Positions 445-5,175 of a stretch of DNA of 5,175 nucleotides are shown piece after piece. A model generated the notes under the pieces. The model was not told where the DNA came from. It ran no database searches and worked only from the letters and a program-made list of their open reading frames with translations. Origin of the DNA: a virus (lineage: Duplodnaviria > Heunggongvirae > Uroviricota > Caudoviricetes). The stretch is taken from IMG/VR virus record IMGVR_UViG_2537562091_000002, one strand, 5' to 3'. Within the stretch, counting starts at the first letter, position 1. Every line of letters begins with the position of its first letter. The translations under genes were made by a program, and so were the position numbers.

Positions 445-517
445 CAACACCCGATACTTTTTCCTGGCTTCCAGCAACGGGGTTTCTTCCTCCGTTGCAT
501 ATACAGCTCACCTTTTT

Positions 518-811
518 TCACCCACGATTAACCAACAGCCAGATCAGCAGACACGCCACCACCGGCACAGCAAAATCCATCAGGCTTGCCACATCCCAAA
601 CACGCGGATCAAAACCGCCCCACCACGGCATGTTAATCCGCTTGCCATGCCCGAACATTTCAATCCAGCGATATTCTGCCTGGGTGTGTTCACGCGCAAT
701 GAAGAACGTACAACCAGCTATCGCCCCATAAGCCCAGTTTCCGGTAAAAAGACCAACCAGTGTCTGCGCAGCCACAGCACAAAGCGCATGAAGAAAAGGT
801 GTTATATCCAT
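518..811 (-). CDS. Small predicted membrane protein (97 aa), function unknown; last gene of the post-fibre cassette
   Basis: ORF with ATG at 809-811 preceded by AGGAGGAG immediately after the upstream stop. Hydrophobic stretches FLHALCAVAAQTLVGLF, WAYGAIAGCTFFIA and FAVPVVACLLIWLLV flank a charged loop containing WWGGFDPRVWD. No family recognised by eye. Confidence 0.6.
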   Translation of the reverse strand: MDITPFLHALCAVAAQTLVGLFTGNWAYGAIAGCTFFIAREHTQAEYRWIEMFGHGKRINMPWWGGFDPRVWDVASLMDFAVPVVACLLIWLLVNRG

Positions 812-821
812 TACTCCTCCT

Positions 822-1526
822 TTATCTAATATCGCTTCGGGAAGTTAATAACAACTTTAATTCTGACTCAAGTTCATCAACTCTTTCAGTCAGTTTCTGG
901 ATATGGTGAATCAGTGGAACAACCAGACGTTCGTACATTACACCTTCGGCAACAAGGCCATTGCTGGAAATAGCTTCAGGAGCATCATCTTCGTTAGCTG
1001 GTCGCCAGTGTACAAACTGAGGAGCAATTTCTCCTACTTCCTCGGCAATCAATCCGTAGAATCCCCAGTCACGCCTGTCATTTTCGCATTGCGACCTGTA
1101 CCACACAGGGCGCATCCTGAAAATGAGATCGGCGTGCTCTGAATCTATTGTCTCTACTGAATGTTTATAGCGGATAGACGATGTTGACCGCAGCACAGAC
1201 GAAATTGCAGGGTCAGGATTAAGATAAAGGTTTGCCGCCGCTGTAGTCGTGGCCAAATTCCATAAATAAAACGCTTCACGACCTGTCAGTGGATAAAAAT
1301 CTCCGCCATAACGACCACTTTCCAGATCGTTCACTTCCACTTTGTTTTTCAGCTTATTATCAACTTCAGTTTTTGTGTATCTGGAGCTGATATCCTGCTT
1401 TGCACTGGTCATCTCAGTCTGAAGCGTTGATACTTTTCTGCTAATTGATGAAATATCTTCCTTAGCTTTACTGACATCCCCCTTTAGCTTGGTGATATCT
1501 CCTGGAATTACTGTCGATGTAGCCAT
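822..1526 (-). CDS. Standalone coiled-coil protein (234 aa) with a C-terminal peptidase-S74-type intramolecular chaperone domain (tail-fibre/tailspike auto-chaperone type)
   Basis: ATG at 1524-1526, with GAGG overlapping the upstream stop 9 nt before it. Residues about 10-65 show 3-4 spaced hydrophobics (heptad pattern). Residues about 116-234 (SSIRYKHSVETID...RPVWYR...GLIAEEVGEIAPQFV...YERLVVPLIHHIQKL...ELESELKLL) fit the recalled S74 IMC consensus (SDrrlK...lrPvsYrY...GliAQEv...). Confidence 0.8.
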   Translation of the reverse strand: MATSTVIPGDITKLKGDVSKAKEDISSISRKVSTLQTEMTSAKQDISSRYTKTEVDNKLKNKVEVNDLESGRYGGDFYPLTGREAFYLWNLATTTAAANLYLNPDPAISSVLRSTSSIRYKHSVETIDSEHADLIFRMRPVWYRSQCENDRRDWGFYGLIAEEVGEIAPQFVHWRPANEDDAPEAISSNGLVAEGVMYERLVVPLIHHIQKLTERVDELESELKLLLTSRSDIR

Positions 1527-1535
1527 TTTCCTGCC

Positions 1536-1817
1536 TCACATCCAGCCACGAAGTTGATGCTCAACAACAACCGCGTATTTATCGAATATTGACGATTTTT
1601 TTGCATCATTAATGATGCGCACGTTTACAAAATATCCGTCTTCCTTAACACATACCGGCTCGCCATCTTCAGTAAGTTCTCCGGTTTCTTTGTACACGTT
1701 ACCTATCACGTCAATAAGAATATCATCCTGCATCGACTCGTCATCATAATAGCCAGCACTCTTCATAAAGGCCGAAAAGTCGGCCTTGTCTGTGAATTTG
1801 ATAATTAAATCTCGCAT
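1536..1817 (-). CDS. Small acidic hypothetical protein (93 aa), translationally coupled to the fibre gene
   Basis: ATG at 1815-1817 overlaps the fibre stop (minus strand reads TAATG); GGGAGAG lies upstream. Asp/Glu-rich product (MRDLIIKFTDKADFSAFMKSAGYYDDESMQDD...). No similarity to Tfa recognised. Confidence 0.6.
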   Translation of the reverse strand: MRDLIIKFTDKADFSAFMKSAGYYDDESMQDDILIDVIGNVYKETGELTEDGEPVCVKEDGYFVNVRIINDAKKSSIFDKYAVVVEHQLRGWM

Positions 1818-3784
1818 TATATTATCTCTCCCATTTGCGCATCGGTTAATTCTTTATGCCATATTCTAAAATTCCTGATATAACCAAATAAATGACGTAA
1901 GCCGGCTGTAGTCTGGCCTCCAATCCTTATACCTGTAGCACCACTAACACTCTTCCACGTTGTTGATGCTGGTGTTGATAAAACCCCATTGCAGCCAGCC
2001 TGAAACTTGCCATCGCTTTTTATTCTATATACAGCGATAATCTTTCTTGGGTAATTTCCAGGTGGAAATGATATTGGATTACCAAATTGAACATATGGAG
2101 TTCCTACACTACCTGCTGTATTTCTGAATGCAAAAACAAAAGCGTCGTCTTTTGTTTTAAATCCTGTTATATCATAAATTCTAGGCGCGGAATTTGGTGC
2201 CATAGACCAATTTTTATTCACTTCAACCATGCAGGTTAAAGGTTTGCTGGCCATGTTATTTTTACAAGGCAATGTAACAATATCGCTTGCTCGCGTTGAT
2301 GCAACTGTATCGGAAATGATAAAAGATGATGCGCATGAGCCGCCTTCAAATTGTGGTGTCGTAACATCCAAATATTCCCCGCCCAAATAAGTTCCAGGTG
2401 AAACAGGTGGAGCAATTTGGATCTGAGAGCCAACCATATTATCAATAGCTTCAGATTGATATGTAACCTCGAAATAAATCCATCCATTAGATTCTTTCTC
2501 CGCTCGGGCGGTTATTCTTGCAGCCCCTCCTCCCGTTTTCCTAATGGACATATCTGTTATATTAAGATATGCATCTGCCAGATAAAAATATGCGGACCCG
2601 TCATATCTTTCAAATCTTATACGACATTGTATATTAGCACTATCGCTTTTTACACGACATGATGTTGTAACATACTTTTCAGTTCCAGTAACATCGACAC
2701 CTCTTCCTCCTGAAACCGCAGCGATATTCATTGTCGTATTTGTCCCAATTTTTTCGTCCTTTATTTGAAACCGCCCATAAGTAAAGCCAAACTCATCAAC
2801 ACCACTTTCTGTTATAGTTACACTTGTTGTAGCTCCCCACTTAGATGGCGTAAGTGAATTAAGATGATAGTTGGTTCTTTGTCCTTCAATCAGCAAACCT
2901 TCTCGTTCAAATCGCGGTTCGTCAACTTCAGCAACGGTTAATACTCCTGATTTATTAATGTATGTTGCACCTGATGCGCGTTTGAAGCTAACAACCTTAT
3001 CGGATGGCATTTTAATAACATCATCACCTACAGTTATTTGCTTATAACCAGGCGAAAAGCCAGCAAGCATATCCAGTGAATCGTTAAACGGTATCCACAC
3101 ATCGGGAAGCGGCTGCAAAACTTGTTTATACGGCTCCGCAGCCTGGCTTGCATACTCTCTGGCTGCGTCTTCACTTGCTTTTGCAGCCGTCTGGCTTGCA
3201 GCGGATGCTTTCGCCGAGTTAGCCGCCGCAGTCTCGCTCGCCTTTGCGTTGGTTTCACTGGTTTTTGCAGCTTTTTGACTGTTGGCTGATGCAGTGGCAG
3301 AAGAAGCCGCCGCACTTGCAGAACCAGCTGCGGCACTCTCGCTTTGGGCCGCTGCATCCTGACTGTTTTTCGCCGCAGTTTCGCTGGCTTTGGCATTCGT
3401 TTCGCTGGTCTTCGCTGCCGTCTGGCTGGACTTTGCGTTAGTTTCGCTCGTCTTCGCTGCTTTCTGGCTGTTAGCTGCAGCAGTTGCTGATCCAGCTGCT
3501 GAAGTCGCAGAACCGGCTGCCGCACTCTCGCTTTCGGCTGCTGCAGCCTGACTGCTTTTCGCCGCAGTTTCACTGGTTTTGGCATTCGTTTCGCTTGTTT
3601 TCGCTGCCGCCTGGCTGGACTTTGCGTTGGTTTCGCTCGTCTTTGCTGCTGTCTCGCTATTTTTCGCGTTGTTTTCTGATTTTTTAGCTGCTGTCGCGGA
3701 GTTTGCCGATGCAGTCTGCGAGGCCGCTGCCGCCTGTGCGCTGTTAACCTGAATCGGTTCGTGCTGCCTTTGCGGTTTCCTGAT
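1817..3784 (-). CDS. Side tail fibre protein (Stf family), N-terminally truncated remnant. Open frame 3784-1817 with no canonical start; the only start candidate is TTG at 3116-3118. C-terminal LamG/concanavalin-A-like lectin-type domain.
   Basis: Manual translation of the frame continuous with the 1817..3118 ORF stays open up to TGA at 3785-3787. Residues upstream of 3118 read ...AAKTSETNAKASETAAKNSQDAAAQSESAAAGSA..., typical of lambda Stf-type shaft repeats. The C-terminus ...IGGQTTAGLRHLFGYIRNFRIWHKELTDAQMGEII fits the LamG signature (IGG...G.IDEVRIYNRALSAEEI). Confidence 0.8.
   Translation of the reverse strand: MRKPQRQHEPIQVNSAQAAAASQTASANSATAAKKSENNAKNSETAAKTSETNAKSSQAAAKTSETNAKTSETAAKSSQAAAAESESAAAGSATSAAGSATAAANSQKAAKTSETNAKSSQTAAKTSETNAKASETAAKNSQDAAAQSESAAAGSASAAASSATASANSQKAAKTSETNAKASETAAANSAKASAASQTAAKASEDAAREYASQAAEPYKQVLQPLPDVWIPFNDSLDMLAGFSPGYKQITVGDDVIKMPSDKVVSFKRASGATYINKSGVLTVAEVDEPRFEREGLLIEGQRTNYHLNSLTPSKWGATTSVTITESGVDEFGFTYGRFQIKDEKIGTNTTMNIAAVSGGRGVDVTGTEKYVTTSCRVKSDSANIQCRIRFERYDGSAYFYLADAYLNITDMSIRKTGGGAARITARAEKESNGWIYFEVTYQSEAIDNMVGSQIQIAPPVSPGTYLGGEYLDVTTPQFEGGSCASSFIISDTVASTRASDIVTLPCKNNMASKPLTCMVEVNKNWSMAPNSAPRIYDITGFKTKDDAFVFAFRNTAGSVGTPYVQFGNPISFPPGNYPRKIIAVYRIKSDGKFQAGCNGVLSTPASTTWKSVSGATGIRIGGQTTAGLRHLFGYIRNFRIWHKELTDAQMGEII
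3240..3720. repeat. In-frame tandem direct repeat, period 189 bp (63 codons), about 2.5 copies, encoding the fibre shaft low-complexity repeats
   Basis: Near-identical blocks start at 3321 and 3510 (GAACCAGCTGCGGCACTCTCGCTTTGGGCC... vs GAACCGGCTGCCGCACTCTCGCTTTCGGCT...). The sub-motif CTTTGCGTT.GTTTC.CT.GT recurs near 3242, 3431 and 3621. Confidence 0.85.
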
Positions 3785-3791
3785 TCAGCAT
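3744..3791 (-). pseudogene. 15-codon stub (MLNQETAKAARTDSG*), interpreted as the remnant 5' end of the gene after nu1 (terminase large subunit by position)
   Basis: ATG overlaps the nu1 stop as TAATG and is preceded by AGGAGGAG. The frame stops after 15 codons exactly where the Stf-type repeat sequence begins. Too short to identify by sequence; the call rests on position. Confidence 0.35.
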
Positions 3792-4285
3792 TACTCCTCC
3801 TGCTGTAATTCCTCCTCATCATCCGCACCTGCTTCAGTCACCCGCAGGGCTATCTGATCGCGCAGATCATCAATAATGGACTGAACACGGCTCACAGCGG
3901 CAGGCTGCAGACCGCAGTCACGTTCAAGAATATCCGGTAATGTCTCCAGCACCTGCACGACCGCTTTTGCCCAGATGGCAAACTCCCGTCTGACATCACT
4001 GGCCGGAATGAGTTGTGCCGTTTCCTGTTCGAACTTAAGACGCTCACGTTCAGACTGATACCAGGCTTTGCGCTCATGCGCGTCCATTTCGCCTTCTGCA
4101 ACCGGCGGTGGTAATGCCAGAAATGCCGACACAATATCAACCACCCGATAAAGCTTGAGGTTGCTTTCATGCCCCCCTGCAACGGGTAGATTTTGCAGCC
4201 TTGCCGCAGCAGTCTGGCGATGTACACCTGACAATGCCGCCAGTTGACTGATATTCAGCGTCAGATTTTTTAACTCTCGATCCAT
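3791..4285 (-). CDS. Terminase small subunit, lambda Nu1 / Noh family (164 aa)
   Basis: ATG at 4283-4285 with GGAG 7 nt upstream. N-terminal HTH-like segment LNISQLAALSGVHRQTAAARL parallels lambda Nu1 KKQLADIFGASIRTIQNWQ. Sits about 175 bp downstream of a cosN-like site, as in lambda. Confidence 0.85.
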   Translation of the reverse strand: MDRELKNLTLNISQLAALSGVHRQTAAARLQNLPVAGGHESNLKLYRVVDIVSAFLALPPPVAEGEMDAHERKAWYQSERERLKFEQETAQLIPASDVRREFAIWAKAVVQVLETLPDILERDCGLQPAAVSRVQSIIDDLRDQIALRVTEAGADDEEELQQEE

Positions 4286-4500: not shown

Positions 4501-4718
4501 CGACAGCCTGACAACCGTGACGAGCATCTGTAACAGAGCTTTACATAATGGCATGGGGATAATTCAGAAGGACATCACAGCATGCCCACACAAATTAGTG
4601 TGAGTGTCCTGTTTCTTACTACGCGCAGGACTGACGAGCATGAGGGGAAAATACGAGAAACGAAATGCCTTATCTTCAGAAATGCAGCCGGCATCCGAAC
4701 TGGACGATATTGTAAATT

Positions 4719-4757
4719 TGATCTTACCCAGCAATAGTGGACACGCGGCTAAGTGAG
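4719..4757. repeat. IS3 left terminal inverted repeat (approximate extent)
   Basis: Element terminus begins with TG at 4719; the roughly 39-bp IR length is recalled, not measured. Confidence 0.6.
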
Positions 4758-4783
4758 TAAACTCTCAGTCAGAGGTGACTCAC

Positions 4784-5083
4784 ATGACAAAAACAGTATC
4801 AACCAGTAAAAAACCCCGTAAACAGCATTCGCCTGAATTTCGCAGTGAAGCCCTGAAGCTTGCTGAACGCATCGGTGTTACTGCCGCAGCCCGTGAACTC
4901 AGCCTGTATGAATCACAGCTCTACAACTGGCGCAGTAAACAGCAAAATCAGCAGACGTCTTCTGAACGTGAACTGGAGATGTCTACCGAGATTGCACGTC
5001 TCAAACGCCAGCTGGCAGAACGGGATGAAGAGCTGGCTATCCTCCAAAAGGCCGCGACATACTTCGCGAAGCGCCTGAAATGA
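4784..5083 (+). CDS. insE: IS3 OrfA (InsE). The ORF track starts at GTG 4775; the canonical ATG is at 4784 with AGAGG upstream.
   Basis: Translation MTKTVSTSKKPRKQHSPEFRSEALKLAERIGVTAAARELSLYESQLYNWRSKQQNQ...ATYFAKRLK matches recalled InsE. The CCAAAAG slippery motif lies at about 5043-5049. Confidence 0.9.
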   Translation: MTKTVSTSKKPRKQHSPEFRSEALKLAERIGVTAAARELSLYESQLYNWRSKQQNQQTSSERELEMSTEIARLKRQLAERDEELAILQKAATYFAKRLK

Positions 5084-5175
5084 AGTATGTCTTTATTGAA
5101 AACATCAGGCTGAGTTCAGCATCAAAGCAATGTGCCGCGTGCTCCGGGTGGCCCGCAGCGGCTGGTATACGTGGT
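5080..5175 (+). CDS. insF: IS3 OrfB (InsF), 5' part only, with an apparent 1-nt deletion in an A-run (possibly inactivating, possibly a homopolymer sequencing error)
   Basis: ATG at 5080 encodes MKYVFIE in frame 1. The conserved continuation HQAEFSIKAMCRVLRVARSGWYTW is encoded from 5103 in a different frame. The window has GAAAAC where the recalled sequence has GAAAAAC. Confidence 0.7.
   Translation, partial: MKYVFIENIRLSSASKQCAACSGWPAAAGIRG

Follow-up and report, generated by a model that had tools for sequence, protein, structure and literature searches.

The window analysed here (5,175 nucleotides of the Caudoviricetes virus record IMGVR_UViG_2537562091_000002) carries on its minus strand a tandem array with a period of 189 nt, which is very probably an ancient in-frame duplication of nine heptads in the helical shaft of an Stf fibre, surviving here as a relic after an illegitimate deletion. 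The gene that holds the array encodes a side tail fibre of the lambda Stf type, of which the array is the proximal shaft, and belongs to a Qin-like defective lambdoid prophage. The feature is ordinary for a known kind of phage protein: lambda-type Stf shafts are built of heptads and shift in length by whole heptads and, occasionally, by nine-heptad blocks. Its importance is small, and the build of Stf shafts is useful background for engineering Stf chimeras in host-range work.

In the course of events that we favour, a nine-heptad (63-residue) block within an Ala/Ser/Thr/Lys/Glu-rich shaft array was duplicated in frame long ago. Units and heptads would be gained and lost through in-register unequal homologous recombination or replication slippage; one unit would correspond to ~9.4 nm of rod (63 x 0.1485 nm), and copy number would set the reach of the receptor-binding domain from the tail. 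An illegitimate deletion with a 2-nt overlap removed the collar domain together with the start codon.

Periodicity and layout of the array

Tandem Repeats Finder detects a period of 189 at 3224-3658 (2.3 copies, 83% matches, 0% indels, score 597) and lists periods 21 and 42 nested within this array, while a repeat search aligns 3224-3412 with 3413-3601 at 81% identity. Within 3125-3746, self-identity peaks at lag 189 (0.67, the top value among lags 1-319), as compared to 0.42-0.54 at other multiples of 21 and 0.25 at lags that are not a multiple of 3. Since 189 nt equal 63 codons or nine heptads, the array is in frame, and the minus-strand reading frame that carries it runs uninterrupted from 3784 until it terminates at 1819-1817. 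The 189-bp periodicity and the in-frame character proposed in the first-pass annotation are thus both borne out, as is its unit of 63 codons. Its estimate of about 2.5 copies is too high, as in-register high identity is confined to 3230-3649 (2.2 copies) and 3650-3746 holds diverged heptads only; nor do the copies differ by just a few substitutions, given that the two units differ at 36/189 nt and 10/63 aa (17-19% divergence).

The raised self-identity at all multiples of 21, along with the additional periods of 21 and 42, could suggest that there is no true higher-order repeat and that the 189-nt signal is a by-product of heptad low complexity. We consider this extremely improbable: lag 189 stands well above the remaining multiples of 21, and its value was attained at any multiple of 21 in 0/5000 shuffles of the 29 heptad blocks, a control in which the shuffled sequences preserve the 21-nt periodicity. 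Moreover, both units are recognisably orthologous across six other alleles, and a third unit is present in some alleles (see below). The shuffle control and the cross-allele unit matrix together refute a pure side effect of the heptads, and the array is a higher-order tandem repeat with a period that is a multiple of 3, copies in register, and a signal above the heptad background.

The array and its parts, all on the minus strand, are as follows.

3125..3746, minus strand: surviving proximal shaft of Stf (coiled coil by homology), a 21-nt heptad array whose 5' side is cut by the deletion junction
3629..3649, minus strand: leading heptad AAKTSET, a partial copy at the 5' edge of the array (coding sense), 19/21 nt identical to 3440-3460 at lag 189
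3440..3628, minus strand: unit 1 (type 1), 189 nt or 63 codons
3251..3439, minus strand: unit 2 (type 2), 83% nt and 53/63 aa identical to unit 1
3230..3250, minus strand: trailing heptad NAKASET, a partial third copy at the 3' edge of the array, 17/21 nt identical to 3419-3439

The basic unit is a 21-nt heptad with the consensus [A/N]-A-[K/A]-x-S-[E/Q/A]-[T/S], of which 29 complete copies run from 3733 to 3125 with no break, stutter, or indel. Position 2 is Ala in 25/28 and position 5 is Ser in 27/28 heptads, resulting in spacings of 3 and 4 residues, and large hydrophobic residues occur at no heptad position of the array. The duplicated nine-heptad block comprises the units at 3628-3440 (NAKSSQA AAKTSET NAKTSET AAKSSQA AAAESES AAAGSAT SAAGSAT AAANSQK AAKTSET) and 3439-3251 (NAKSSQT AAKTSET NAKASET AAKNSQD AAAQSES AAAGSAS AAASSAT ASANSQK AAKTSET), and the leading heptad at 3629..3649 is homologous to the last heptad of each unit.

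Identity of the fibre gene

By BLAST, positions 445-3746 of the window match E. coli B REL606 at 99.97% identity across 3.3 kb. The stf ORF is intact in REL606 (792 aa); in LD67-1, it is one CDS of 782 aa downstream of J and lom. The J-lom-stf context recurs in REL606, in LD67-1, and at five further loci that carry this gene; in the window itself, J and lom are deleted. The N-terminus of the intact allele matches the lambda Stf collar domain (PDB 9E7M/9MGH, E = 5e-50), and this allele (P0001/REL606) carries the PF08400 collar domain. In the window, the collar domain (PF08400; lambda gpStfN) is missing through deletion, which makes the window copy a truncated family member. The full length of the fibre protein is matched by phrog_1419, and its homologues in functional lambdoid phages bear the annotation side tail fibre. 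The 'fibre shaft' of the first-pass annotation was hence an apt description, as the intact allele consists of the Stf collar domain, then the heptad array, and then a receptor-binding C-terminal region, which is retained in the window.

1817..3124, minus strand: last stretch of the shaft (QVLQPLPDVWIPF...) plus the receptor-binding C-terminus of Stf, including its stop codon (1819-1817)

NCBIfam assigns a 'GTA_spike_fiber' domain to this region, which also has a weak match of the Laminin_G_3 / ConA-like kind; T5-like phages share this C-terminal module. With the whole model, Foldseek found lectin-like domains and phage tail fibres as weak matches only (query TM < 0.3). The shaft gave no match and is likewise covered by no Pfam family. 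NCBIfam matches to SMC and NlpC/P60 over the shaft were rejected, being far under the cut-offs and reflecting coiled-coil or low-complexity composition.

The intact allele resembles lambda Stf in its N-terminal collar domain, its position after J and lom, and its Ala/Ser/Thr/Lys/Glu heptad shaft with AAKTSETNA-type motifs. It differs in a shorter shaft (~245 aa) with a clear nine-heptad duplication and in a distal part that is GTA_spike_fiber / lectin-like rather than lambda's gp37-like fibre; the window copy additionally differs by the deleted collar domain and start codon. A distal fibre of the gp37 type, with OmpC-binding tip and Tfa chaperone, was not found; downstream in REL606, only a tfa fragment is annotated. 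Further relatives are the StfQ/StfR-type remnants of the defective lambdoid prophages Qin and Rac in E. coli K-12 and B. The window copy lies at the chromosomal locus of REL606 Qin (ydfJ ... pinQ ... cspI, rzpQ) and follows the decay pattern of these remnants, through deletions and IS elements, but has a deletion of its own that fuses terL codon 15 to stf.

The deletion junction

The features at the upstream edge of the shaft are the following.

3744..3746, minus strand: deletion junction, placed by aligning the window jointly with REL606 stf and EC931 terL, and by BLAST end points
3747..3791, minus strand: start of the terminase large subunit gene (15 codons, MLNQETAKAARTDSG), in a different frame from the stf remnant
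3791..4285, minus strand: DUF1441 / terminase small subunit-like gene, 164 aa (PF07278, E = 2.7e-41; phrog_141 terminase small subunit)

At the junction (3746/3745), only 'TA' (3746-3745) is common to the terL and the stf parent, and the join creates a TAA (3746-3744) that ends the 15-codon terL stub. The DUF1441 gene now lies directly upstream of the stf remnant. The loss extends from terL codon 16 to approximately stf codon 146 and includes the tail-anchoring collar domain and the start codon; the shaft offers no in-frame ATG, GTG, or TTG before 3118. The repeats had been suggested to provide the microhomology for this deletion, a proposal that fails, because just 2 nt are shared at the junction, which sits in a diverged heptad ~97 nt outside the 189-nt array; in addition, terL has no similarity to the repeat. 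The deletion that killed the fibre of the prophage is illegitimate and not repeat-mediated, and the repeat in the window is a relic within a beheaded fibre gene. The terL-stf junction was found in 0 of 5,426 complete E. coli genomes, and its exact 36-nt pattern had no match in GTDB species-representative genomes.

Divergence, age, and selection

Identity between the units is uneven: 3335-3460 and 3524-3649 agree at 91%, 3230-3334 and 3419-3523 at 74%. The longest exact in-register run in the window allele is 18 nt. Unit 1 of the window is 91-99% identical to the type-1 units of six other alleles (i. e., unit 1, plus the added unit in three-unit alleles), and for unit 2 the identity to the type-2 unit in other alleles is 95-96%. 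Because paralogous units within alleles are 83-88% identical and orthologous units between alleles 91-99%, the units are read from these comparisons as old paralogues that are orthologous by type, and the duplication as ancient and in frame. Between the two units, pS is 0.485 and pN 0.071 (pN/pS ~0.15), and at the level of codon substitutions purifying selection is shown to act on the sense-frame Stf protein.

Synonymous divergence is distributed unequally, with a pS of 0.18 in the 5' five heptads and of 0.78 in the 3' part, in which synonymous sites are saturated. Protein alignments hinted at concerted evolution of the two units; as a general pattern it was rejected, since the nucleotide matrix groups units by position and not by allele, and low synonymous divergence is limited to the 5' five heptads.

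Copy number among alleles

The shafts of T4 gp34/gp37, P2 H, and T5 pb1 are built from in-frame repeated structural units in a trimeric rod, and the length and module boundaries of tail-fibre shafts shift via recombination between repeats. While those shafts have mostly beta-structured repeats, the Stf repeat unit described here is a multiple of the alpha-helical heptad. A literature search on heptad-repeat length variation in tail fibres yielded nothing relevant.

Among 88 homologue clusters, the shaft measures 245 aa in 79, 308 aa in 5, 238 aa in 3, and 140 aa in 1. Six two-unit clusters alone account for 2,223 member sequences. In 5/88 clusters, all of them singletons, the shaft is exactly 63 aa longer and holds a third unit, and 3/88 clusters have lost one heptad (-7 aa). 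Comparison among relatives thus revealed the polymorphism that had been anticipated (308 versus 245 aa, plus losses of single heptads). In complete genomes, by contrast, the two-unit length was found in 72/72 sampled rows (12/12 with full coverage and the best 60 rows); with a three-unit BLAST query, overlapping pieces were joined, which leaves coverage uninformative and the record span alone usable, and this span was 961 nt, the two-unit length, in all of the best 60 rows. The idea that the repeats allow the shaft to vary in length accordingly stands as far as the gain of a unit is concerned, but not as a common variation: copy number is mostly fixed, and unit gain occurs but is rare.

The three-unit alleles, among them those in GCA_016595135.1 and GCA_036902485.1, stem from draft or metagenome assemblies, in which mis-assembly of repeats is possible, though they represent five clusters in three sequence versions. 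In one of them (P0011), units 1 and 2 are 100% identical. In another (P0019), unit 2 shares 99% identity with unit 1 of REL606 and unit 1 shares 97% with the P0011 type, which in sequence looks like an unequal crossover between two different alleles.

The existence of alleles with +63 aa and -7 aa, together with the two identical units that point to a recent event, might be taken to indicate a hypervariable, contingency-type locus, at which frequent recombination switches shaft length and also caused the deletion in the window. We regard this as very improbable in light of the constant shaft length in 79/88 clusters and in all 72 complete-genome rows, the mere 83% identity between units with no exact run beyond 18 nt, and a deletion junction that shares 2 nt and lies outside the array. 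Near-identical units combined with frequent copy-number change among close relatives, as expected of a contingency locus, were not found. For efficient RecA-dependent recombination in E. coli, roughly 23-27 bp are usually cited; with a longest exact run of 18 nt, further unit change in the window allele should therefore be infrequent.

Structure of the shaft

The window array corresponds by position to the proximal coiled-coil domain of Ur-lambda Stf, residues 102-393 of which were modelled as the proximal coiled coil of a trimer (PMC12617516). A weak match (E = 0.0013) places the same heptad motif in residues 129-173 (AKTSEDNAKSSENAAKNSE) of DpK2, the depolymerase of Klebsiella phage RAD2 (PDB 7LZJ), within a region described as an 'extended triple helical bundle' of the trimer in cryo-EM density (PMC8552709). 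DpK2 differs in that its motif segment is short and lies in a region not modelled in the deposited structure, and in being a beta-helix tailspike rather than a side fibre of the lambdoid kind. Homology suggests that the shaft forms a trimeric coiled coil, the trimer being drawn from these two studies (PMC12617516 and PMC8552709) and the structure prediction here being that of a monomer. Its core positions would be Ala and Ser, where large hydrophobic residues are the rule. In the AF2 monomer model, residues 2-131 and 146-202 of the remnant are helical, with moderate confidence in the shaft (block-mean pLDDT ~36-76) that falls below 50 at residues 76-89 and 130-151.

Alternatively, the repeated segment could be a flexible or disordered Ala/Ser-rich linker, or be hinged at the Gly heptads, so that the 63-residue unit would be a spacer-plus-hinge module. 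In line with this, large hydrophobic residues are absent at every heptad position, and AF2 confidence is <50 at the three uncharged heptads of each unit, where one helix break occurs; these low-confidence heptads include two Gly heptads in unit 1, and in unit 2 they are AAAQSES, AAAGSAS (Gly), and AAASSAT. We nonetheless find a linker improbable, as the heptad register is intact over 29 heptads without stutters or indels, the remaining array is predicted to be helical, published descriptions of homologous regions speak of a coiled coil or a triple-helical bundle, and such uncertainty is expected when an obligate trimer is predicted as a monomer.

It is conceivable, albeit rather unlikely, that the 63-residue block is a conserved structural module and not a chance duplication. 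Each block has six charged heptads (AAKTSET / NAKSSQT type) followed by three uncharged ones, which in this reading may act as a soft spot or hinge. Two of these three contain Gly in unit 1 and one in unit 2. The protein sequence of the block is kept despite the saturated synonymous sites in its 3' part (pS 0.78); its 5' part would have been homogenised (pS 0.18), suggestive of gene conversion. Gain or loss of whole modules would then alter the reach of the fibre in ~9.4 nm steps and could suit adsorption to cells that differ in O-antigen or capsule thickness.

Antisense and out-of-frame ORFs

Several further ORFs overlap the shaft, all of which were judged spurious.

3244..3441, plus strand: antisense ORF, 65 aa
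3484..3687, plus strand: antisense ORF, 67 aa, resembling 3244-3441 at a 189-nt offset
3390..3551, plus strand: antisense ORF in another plus-strand frame, 'hypothetical protein' of REL606 in RefSeq
3579..3752, plus strand: antisense ORF, partner of 3390-3551 at an offset of 189 nt; the REL606 counterpart is a 'hypothetical protein'
3034..3828, minus strand: Arg-rich +1-frame ORF spanning the whole shaft, part of it annotated 'phage tail protein' in REL606

The ORFs at 3244-3441 and 3484-3687 align at an offset of exactly 189 nt, so that the repeats do account for this mutually similar pair, as had been proposed, with a contribution from the T-poor sense strand (T content 9.5%). The antisense ORFs are a by-product of repetition and T-poor composition. 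A case for genuine genes in the plus-strand ORFs or the Arg-rich +1 frame, with the repeat reflecting selection on them, might be built on RefSeq, which annotates two plus-strand ORFs and part of the +1 frame as REL606 proteins, and on the 0-1 stops of the +1 frame in seven alleles. This reading has next to no chance of being correct: most of the substitutions that separate the units are silent in the Stf frame (pN/pS ~0.15), antisense stop positions vary between alleles (longest open stretches of 92 to 218 codons), the stop count is near the expectation from composition (mean 6 per 207 codons), and Stf is annotated as a single uninterrupted CDS in LD67-1 and in many other genomes. For annotation, these ORFs serve as a warning that a T-poor, repetitive shaft makes pipelines split an intact fibre gene into antisense or out-of-frame 'proteins'.

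A Duplicated Nine-Heptad Block

The repeat lies on the minus strand in the side tail fibre gene (stf), in a frame that is open from 3784 to a stop codon at 1819–1817. Over the repeat the encoded protein is an unbroken series of heptads with the consensus [A/N]-A-[K/A]-x-S-[E/Q/A]-[T/S] (29 complete heptads, 3733–3125). Tandem Repeats Finder reported a period of 189 at 3224–3658 (2.3 copies, 83 % matches, 0 indels, score 597) with nested periods of 21 and 42 in the same array, and a gap-free repeat search paired 3224–3412 with 3413–3601 at 81 %. Within 3125–3746, self-identity peaks at a lag of 189 (0.67, the highest value among lags 1–319), as compared to 0.42–0.54 at the remaining multiples of 21 and 0.25 at lags not divisible by 3. 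Since the region is itself periodic at 21 nt, a control retaining this periodicity was used, in which the 29 heptad blocks were shuffled and the best lag over all multiples of 21 was taken; 0 of 5000 shuffles matched the observed lag-189 value. The in-frame 189-nt repeat noticed in the first-pass annotation is therefore real. In-register high identity spans 3230–3649 (2.2 copies); the end point of 3720 and the 2.5 copies given for the array slightly overshoot. What had been called a few substitutions amounts to 36 differences in 189 nt and 10 in 63 residues between the two units. The array is laid out as follows:

3649–3629, minus strand: leading heptad AAKTSET
3628–3440, minus strand: unit 1 of the 189-nt array
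3439–3251, minus strand: unit 2 of the 189-nt array
3250–3230, minus strand: trailing heptad NAKASET

The repeat is thus hierarchical, with the heptad as basic unit and a block of nine heptads duplicated.

Identity of the Gene

Several lines of evidence identify the gene as a lambda-type side tail fibre. Window 445–3746 aligns gap-free with the Qin-like prophage of E. coli B REL606 at 99.97 % identity, and in REL606 the same frame extends upstream to an ATG and yields an intact ORF of 792 codons. The first 95 residues of the intact protein match the lambda Stf collar domain (PDB 9E7M/9MGH, E = 5e-50), full-length homologues carry Pfam PF08400, and phrog_1419 (“tail protein”) matches along the whole length. 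In strain LD67-1 and five other loci the gene is a single CDS after J and lom, and homologues are annotated as side tail fibre in functional lambdoid phages (2G7b, Tritos, PhiR63_1, phage 21, and others). The heptad array occupies the same position as the proximal coiled-coil domain (102–393) of Ur-lambda Stf, a trimer by cryo-EM/cryo-ET in which this domain follows a collar domain (1–91) and a linker (PMC12617516). An AlphaFold2 monomer model renders residues 2–131 and 146–202 of the fibre remnant in the window helical with moderate confidence, and the same heptad motif occurs in the Klebsiella phage depolymerase DpK2 (residues 129–173), within the part appearing as an “extended triple helical bundle” in cryo-EM density (PMC8552709). 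The earlier designation as fibre shaft is therefore correct; more precisely, the repeat region forms the proximal coiled-coil shaft in a side fibre of the lambda Stf type, and the window gene is a truncated member of this family with a shaft of known coiled-coil kind. This particular duplication of nine heptads and the rare alleles with three units may be previously undescribed; a limited literature search found no description of them.

Age of the Duplication and Selection

Units were taken from REL606, LD67-1, and the genes of the homologous Stf proteins P0011, P0012, P0019, P0020, and P0107, seven alleles in all. At the nucleotide level they cluster by position, not by allele, with 91–99 % identity among type-1 units (unit 1 and, in three-unit alleles, the added unit), 94–99 % among type-2 units, and 83–88 % between the types. 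The duplication is therefore older than the divergence of the seven alleles. General concerted evolution of the units was rejected on the same grounds.

Between units 1 and 2 of the window, a pS of 0.485 against a pN of 0.071 indicates purifying selection on the Stf-frame protein. The divergence is uneven, with a pS of 0.18 in the first five heptads of the unit and 0.78, essentially saturated, in the last four, where pN is still just 0.085; most simply read, the duplication is old and its 5′ part would have undergone partial gene conversion.

Copy-Number Variation

Among the 120 best homologue clusters examined, 88 contain both shaft boundaries. The shaft measures 245 aa in 79 of these 88, 308 aa (+63) in five, and 238 aa (−7) in three, and in the remaining one it is 140 aa long with a different, unrelated sequence. 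The +63 alleles carry a third unit, of type 1. Units 1 and 2 of P0011 show 100 % identity, and the exact run there reaches 257 nt, which points to a very recent duplication; those of P0012 share 98 % identity. Unit 1 of P0019 shares 97 % identity with unit 1 of P0011, and its unit 2 shares 99 % with unit 1 of REL606, the pattern that an unequal crossover between two different alleles would produce. The −7 alleles have lost one heptad each, from two different sites.

Each of the five three-unit clusters is a singleton, as compared to a total of 2,223 member sequences in six two-unit clusters. In a spread sample of complete genomes (93–100 % identity), 12 of 12 full-coverage rows had exactly the query length, and the best 60 matches of a three-unit query all span 961 nt, the two-unit length. 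The suggested length variation by unequal recombination is hence supported as an occasional event, represented by the +63 and −7 alleles, but not as a hypervariable locus, with 245 aa predominating among the clusters and the two-unit length in the genomes. For RecA-dependent exchange to be efficient in E. coli, about 23–27 bp are needed. Exact in-register runs reach at most 18 nt in the window allele, versus 29–47 nt in the other two-unit alleles, and the window allele should therefore be comparatively stable.

Two further loci (L004 and L005) and the homologous protein P0008 have the same collar domain and PLPDVWIPF boundary with a different shaft, which is 105 residues shorter and without 63-residue units. 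These alleles diverge past the first five or six heptads, and shaft modules are thus swapped within the heptad array.

Proposed Mechanism and Shaft Structure

The comparisons demonstrate an old, selected, in-register nine-heptad duplication in a helical shaft, in which unit gain and heptad loss are rare. In the mechanism that we propose, three chains would run in parallel as a coiled coil, with the Ala at position 2 and the Ser at position 5 turned toward the core, and one unit would add ∼9.4 nm of rod (63×0.1485 nm). Unit and heptad changes would occur via unequal homologous exchange or slippage, and the reach of the C-terminal receptor-binding region would be set by shaft length.

In the AlphaFold2 monomer model, confidence is <50 at window 3314–3376 and 3482–3523 (remnant residues 130–151 and 76–89). 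These sites lie at the three uncharged heptads of a 63-residue unit, where the helix is broken once. In unit 1 they are the two Gly heptads, and in unit 2 they are AAAQSES, AAAGSAS (a Gly heptad), and AAASSAT. This may be a soft spot that recurs with the unit, or an artefact that comes from modelling a monomer.

Deletion and State of the Gene

The fibre gene in the window is a beheaded remnant. Homology to REL606 stf ends at 3746 and homology to intact DUF1441–terL prophage regions (e. g., strain EC931) begins at 3745; in a three-way alignment, the two parents share only “TA” at the crossover (2-nt overlap). The terL stub starts with an ATG at 3791, comprises 15 codons, ends at a junction-created TAA (3746–3744), and is out of frame with stf. 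From the junction to a TTG at 3118, the stf frame holds no ATG, GTG, or TTG. The remnant is without a start codon, and the collar domain, the anchor of the fibre to the tail, is missing. Because the gene is a remnant, the proposed shaft function is inoperative in the window's strain.

The repeats had been considered as a source of microhomology for the deletion. The junction, however, falls into a diverged heptad (HAANSAQ in REL606) ∼97 nt upstream (coding sense) of the 189-nt array, and terL at the junction has no similarity to the repeat. The deletion was therefore illegitimate and not repeat-mediated, and the microhomology idea is not supported. The same terL–stf junction was not found in 5,426 complete E. 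coli genomes or in GTDB species representatives. EC931 and REL606 carry other deletions of the same prophage (terL′–′J and IS3–′J, respectively).

Other Reading Frames and Annotation

T makes up only 9.5 % of the sense strand of the shaft. Owing to this composition, the +1 sense frame is open across the entire shaft (0–1 stops in seven alleles), and the antisense frames, with 4–7 stops in the 245-codon REL606 shaft, are close to expectation (shuffling the 622-nt array of the window gave 6 stops per 207 codons on average). The plus-strand ORFs 3244–3441 and 3484–3687 align at an offset of exactly 189 nt, as do 3390–3551 and 3579–3752, and the longest open antisense stretches vary by allele, in one frame between 92 and 218 codons. 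The first-pass explanation of the former pair as an artefact of the repeat is upheld by these data: the plus-strand ORFs are by-products of composition and repetition.

In REL606 (7373–9751 of locus L001, equivalent to window 1817–3746 plus upstream sequence), RefSeq splits the intact 792-codon stf into five features: a “pseudo” N-terminal piece, two antisense “hypothetical proteins” (WP_000896277.1 and WP_077880430.1), an out-of-frame Arg-rich “phage tail protein” (WP_071819603.1), and a 5′-clipped “phage head spike fiber” CDS. A single CDS is annotated instead in other genomes such as LD67-1. The T-poor repetitive shaft is the likely cause of the split.

C-Terminal Module and Neighbourhood

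The C-terminal region of Stf (window 1817–3124) contains a GTA_spike_fiber domain and shows weak lectin-like similarity. The C-terminal 443 residues (aa 350–792 of the intact protein) share 71–75 % identity with the lateral tail fibre proteins of several T5-like phages (phage records H131–H144; IrisVonRoten, SPLA5b, mar004NP2). This similarity begins exactly where the heptad array ends, indicating that lambdoid and T5-like phages have exchanged a receptor-binding module. Downstream of stf there are three small genes, and the prophage remnant is flanked by two insertion sequences:

1536–1817, minus strand: 93-aa protein, phrog_1361
822–1526, minus strand: 234-aa protein with a Peptidase_S74 intramolecular-chaperone domain
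518–811, minus strand: 97-aa protein, phrog_1443
1–445: partial IS1 (InsA ORF 114–389), abutting the point of the REL606 tfa pseudogene fragment
4708–5175: IS3 (orfA from 4775), at the same position as in EC931

In some alleles a 346-aa version replaces the 234-aa protein. The small downstream genes may constitute a second small fibre accompanying this Stf type.
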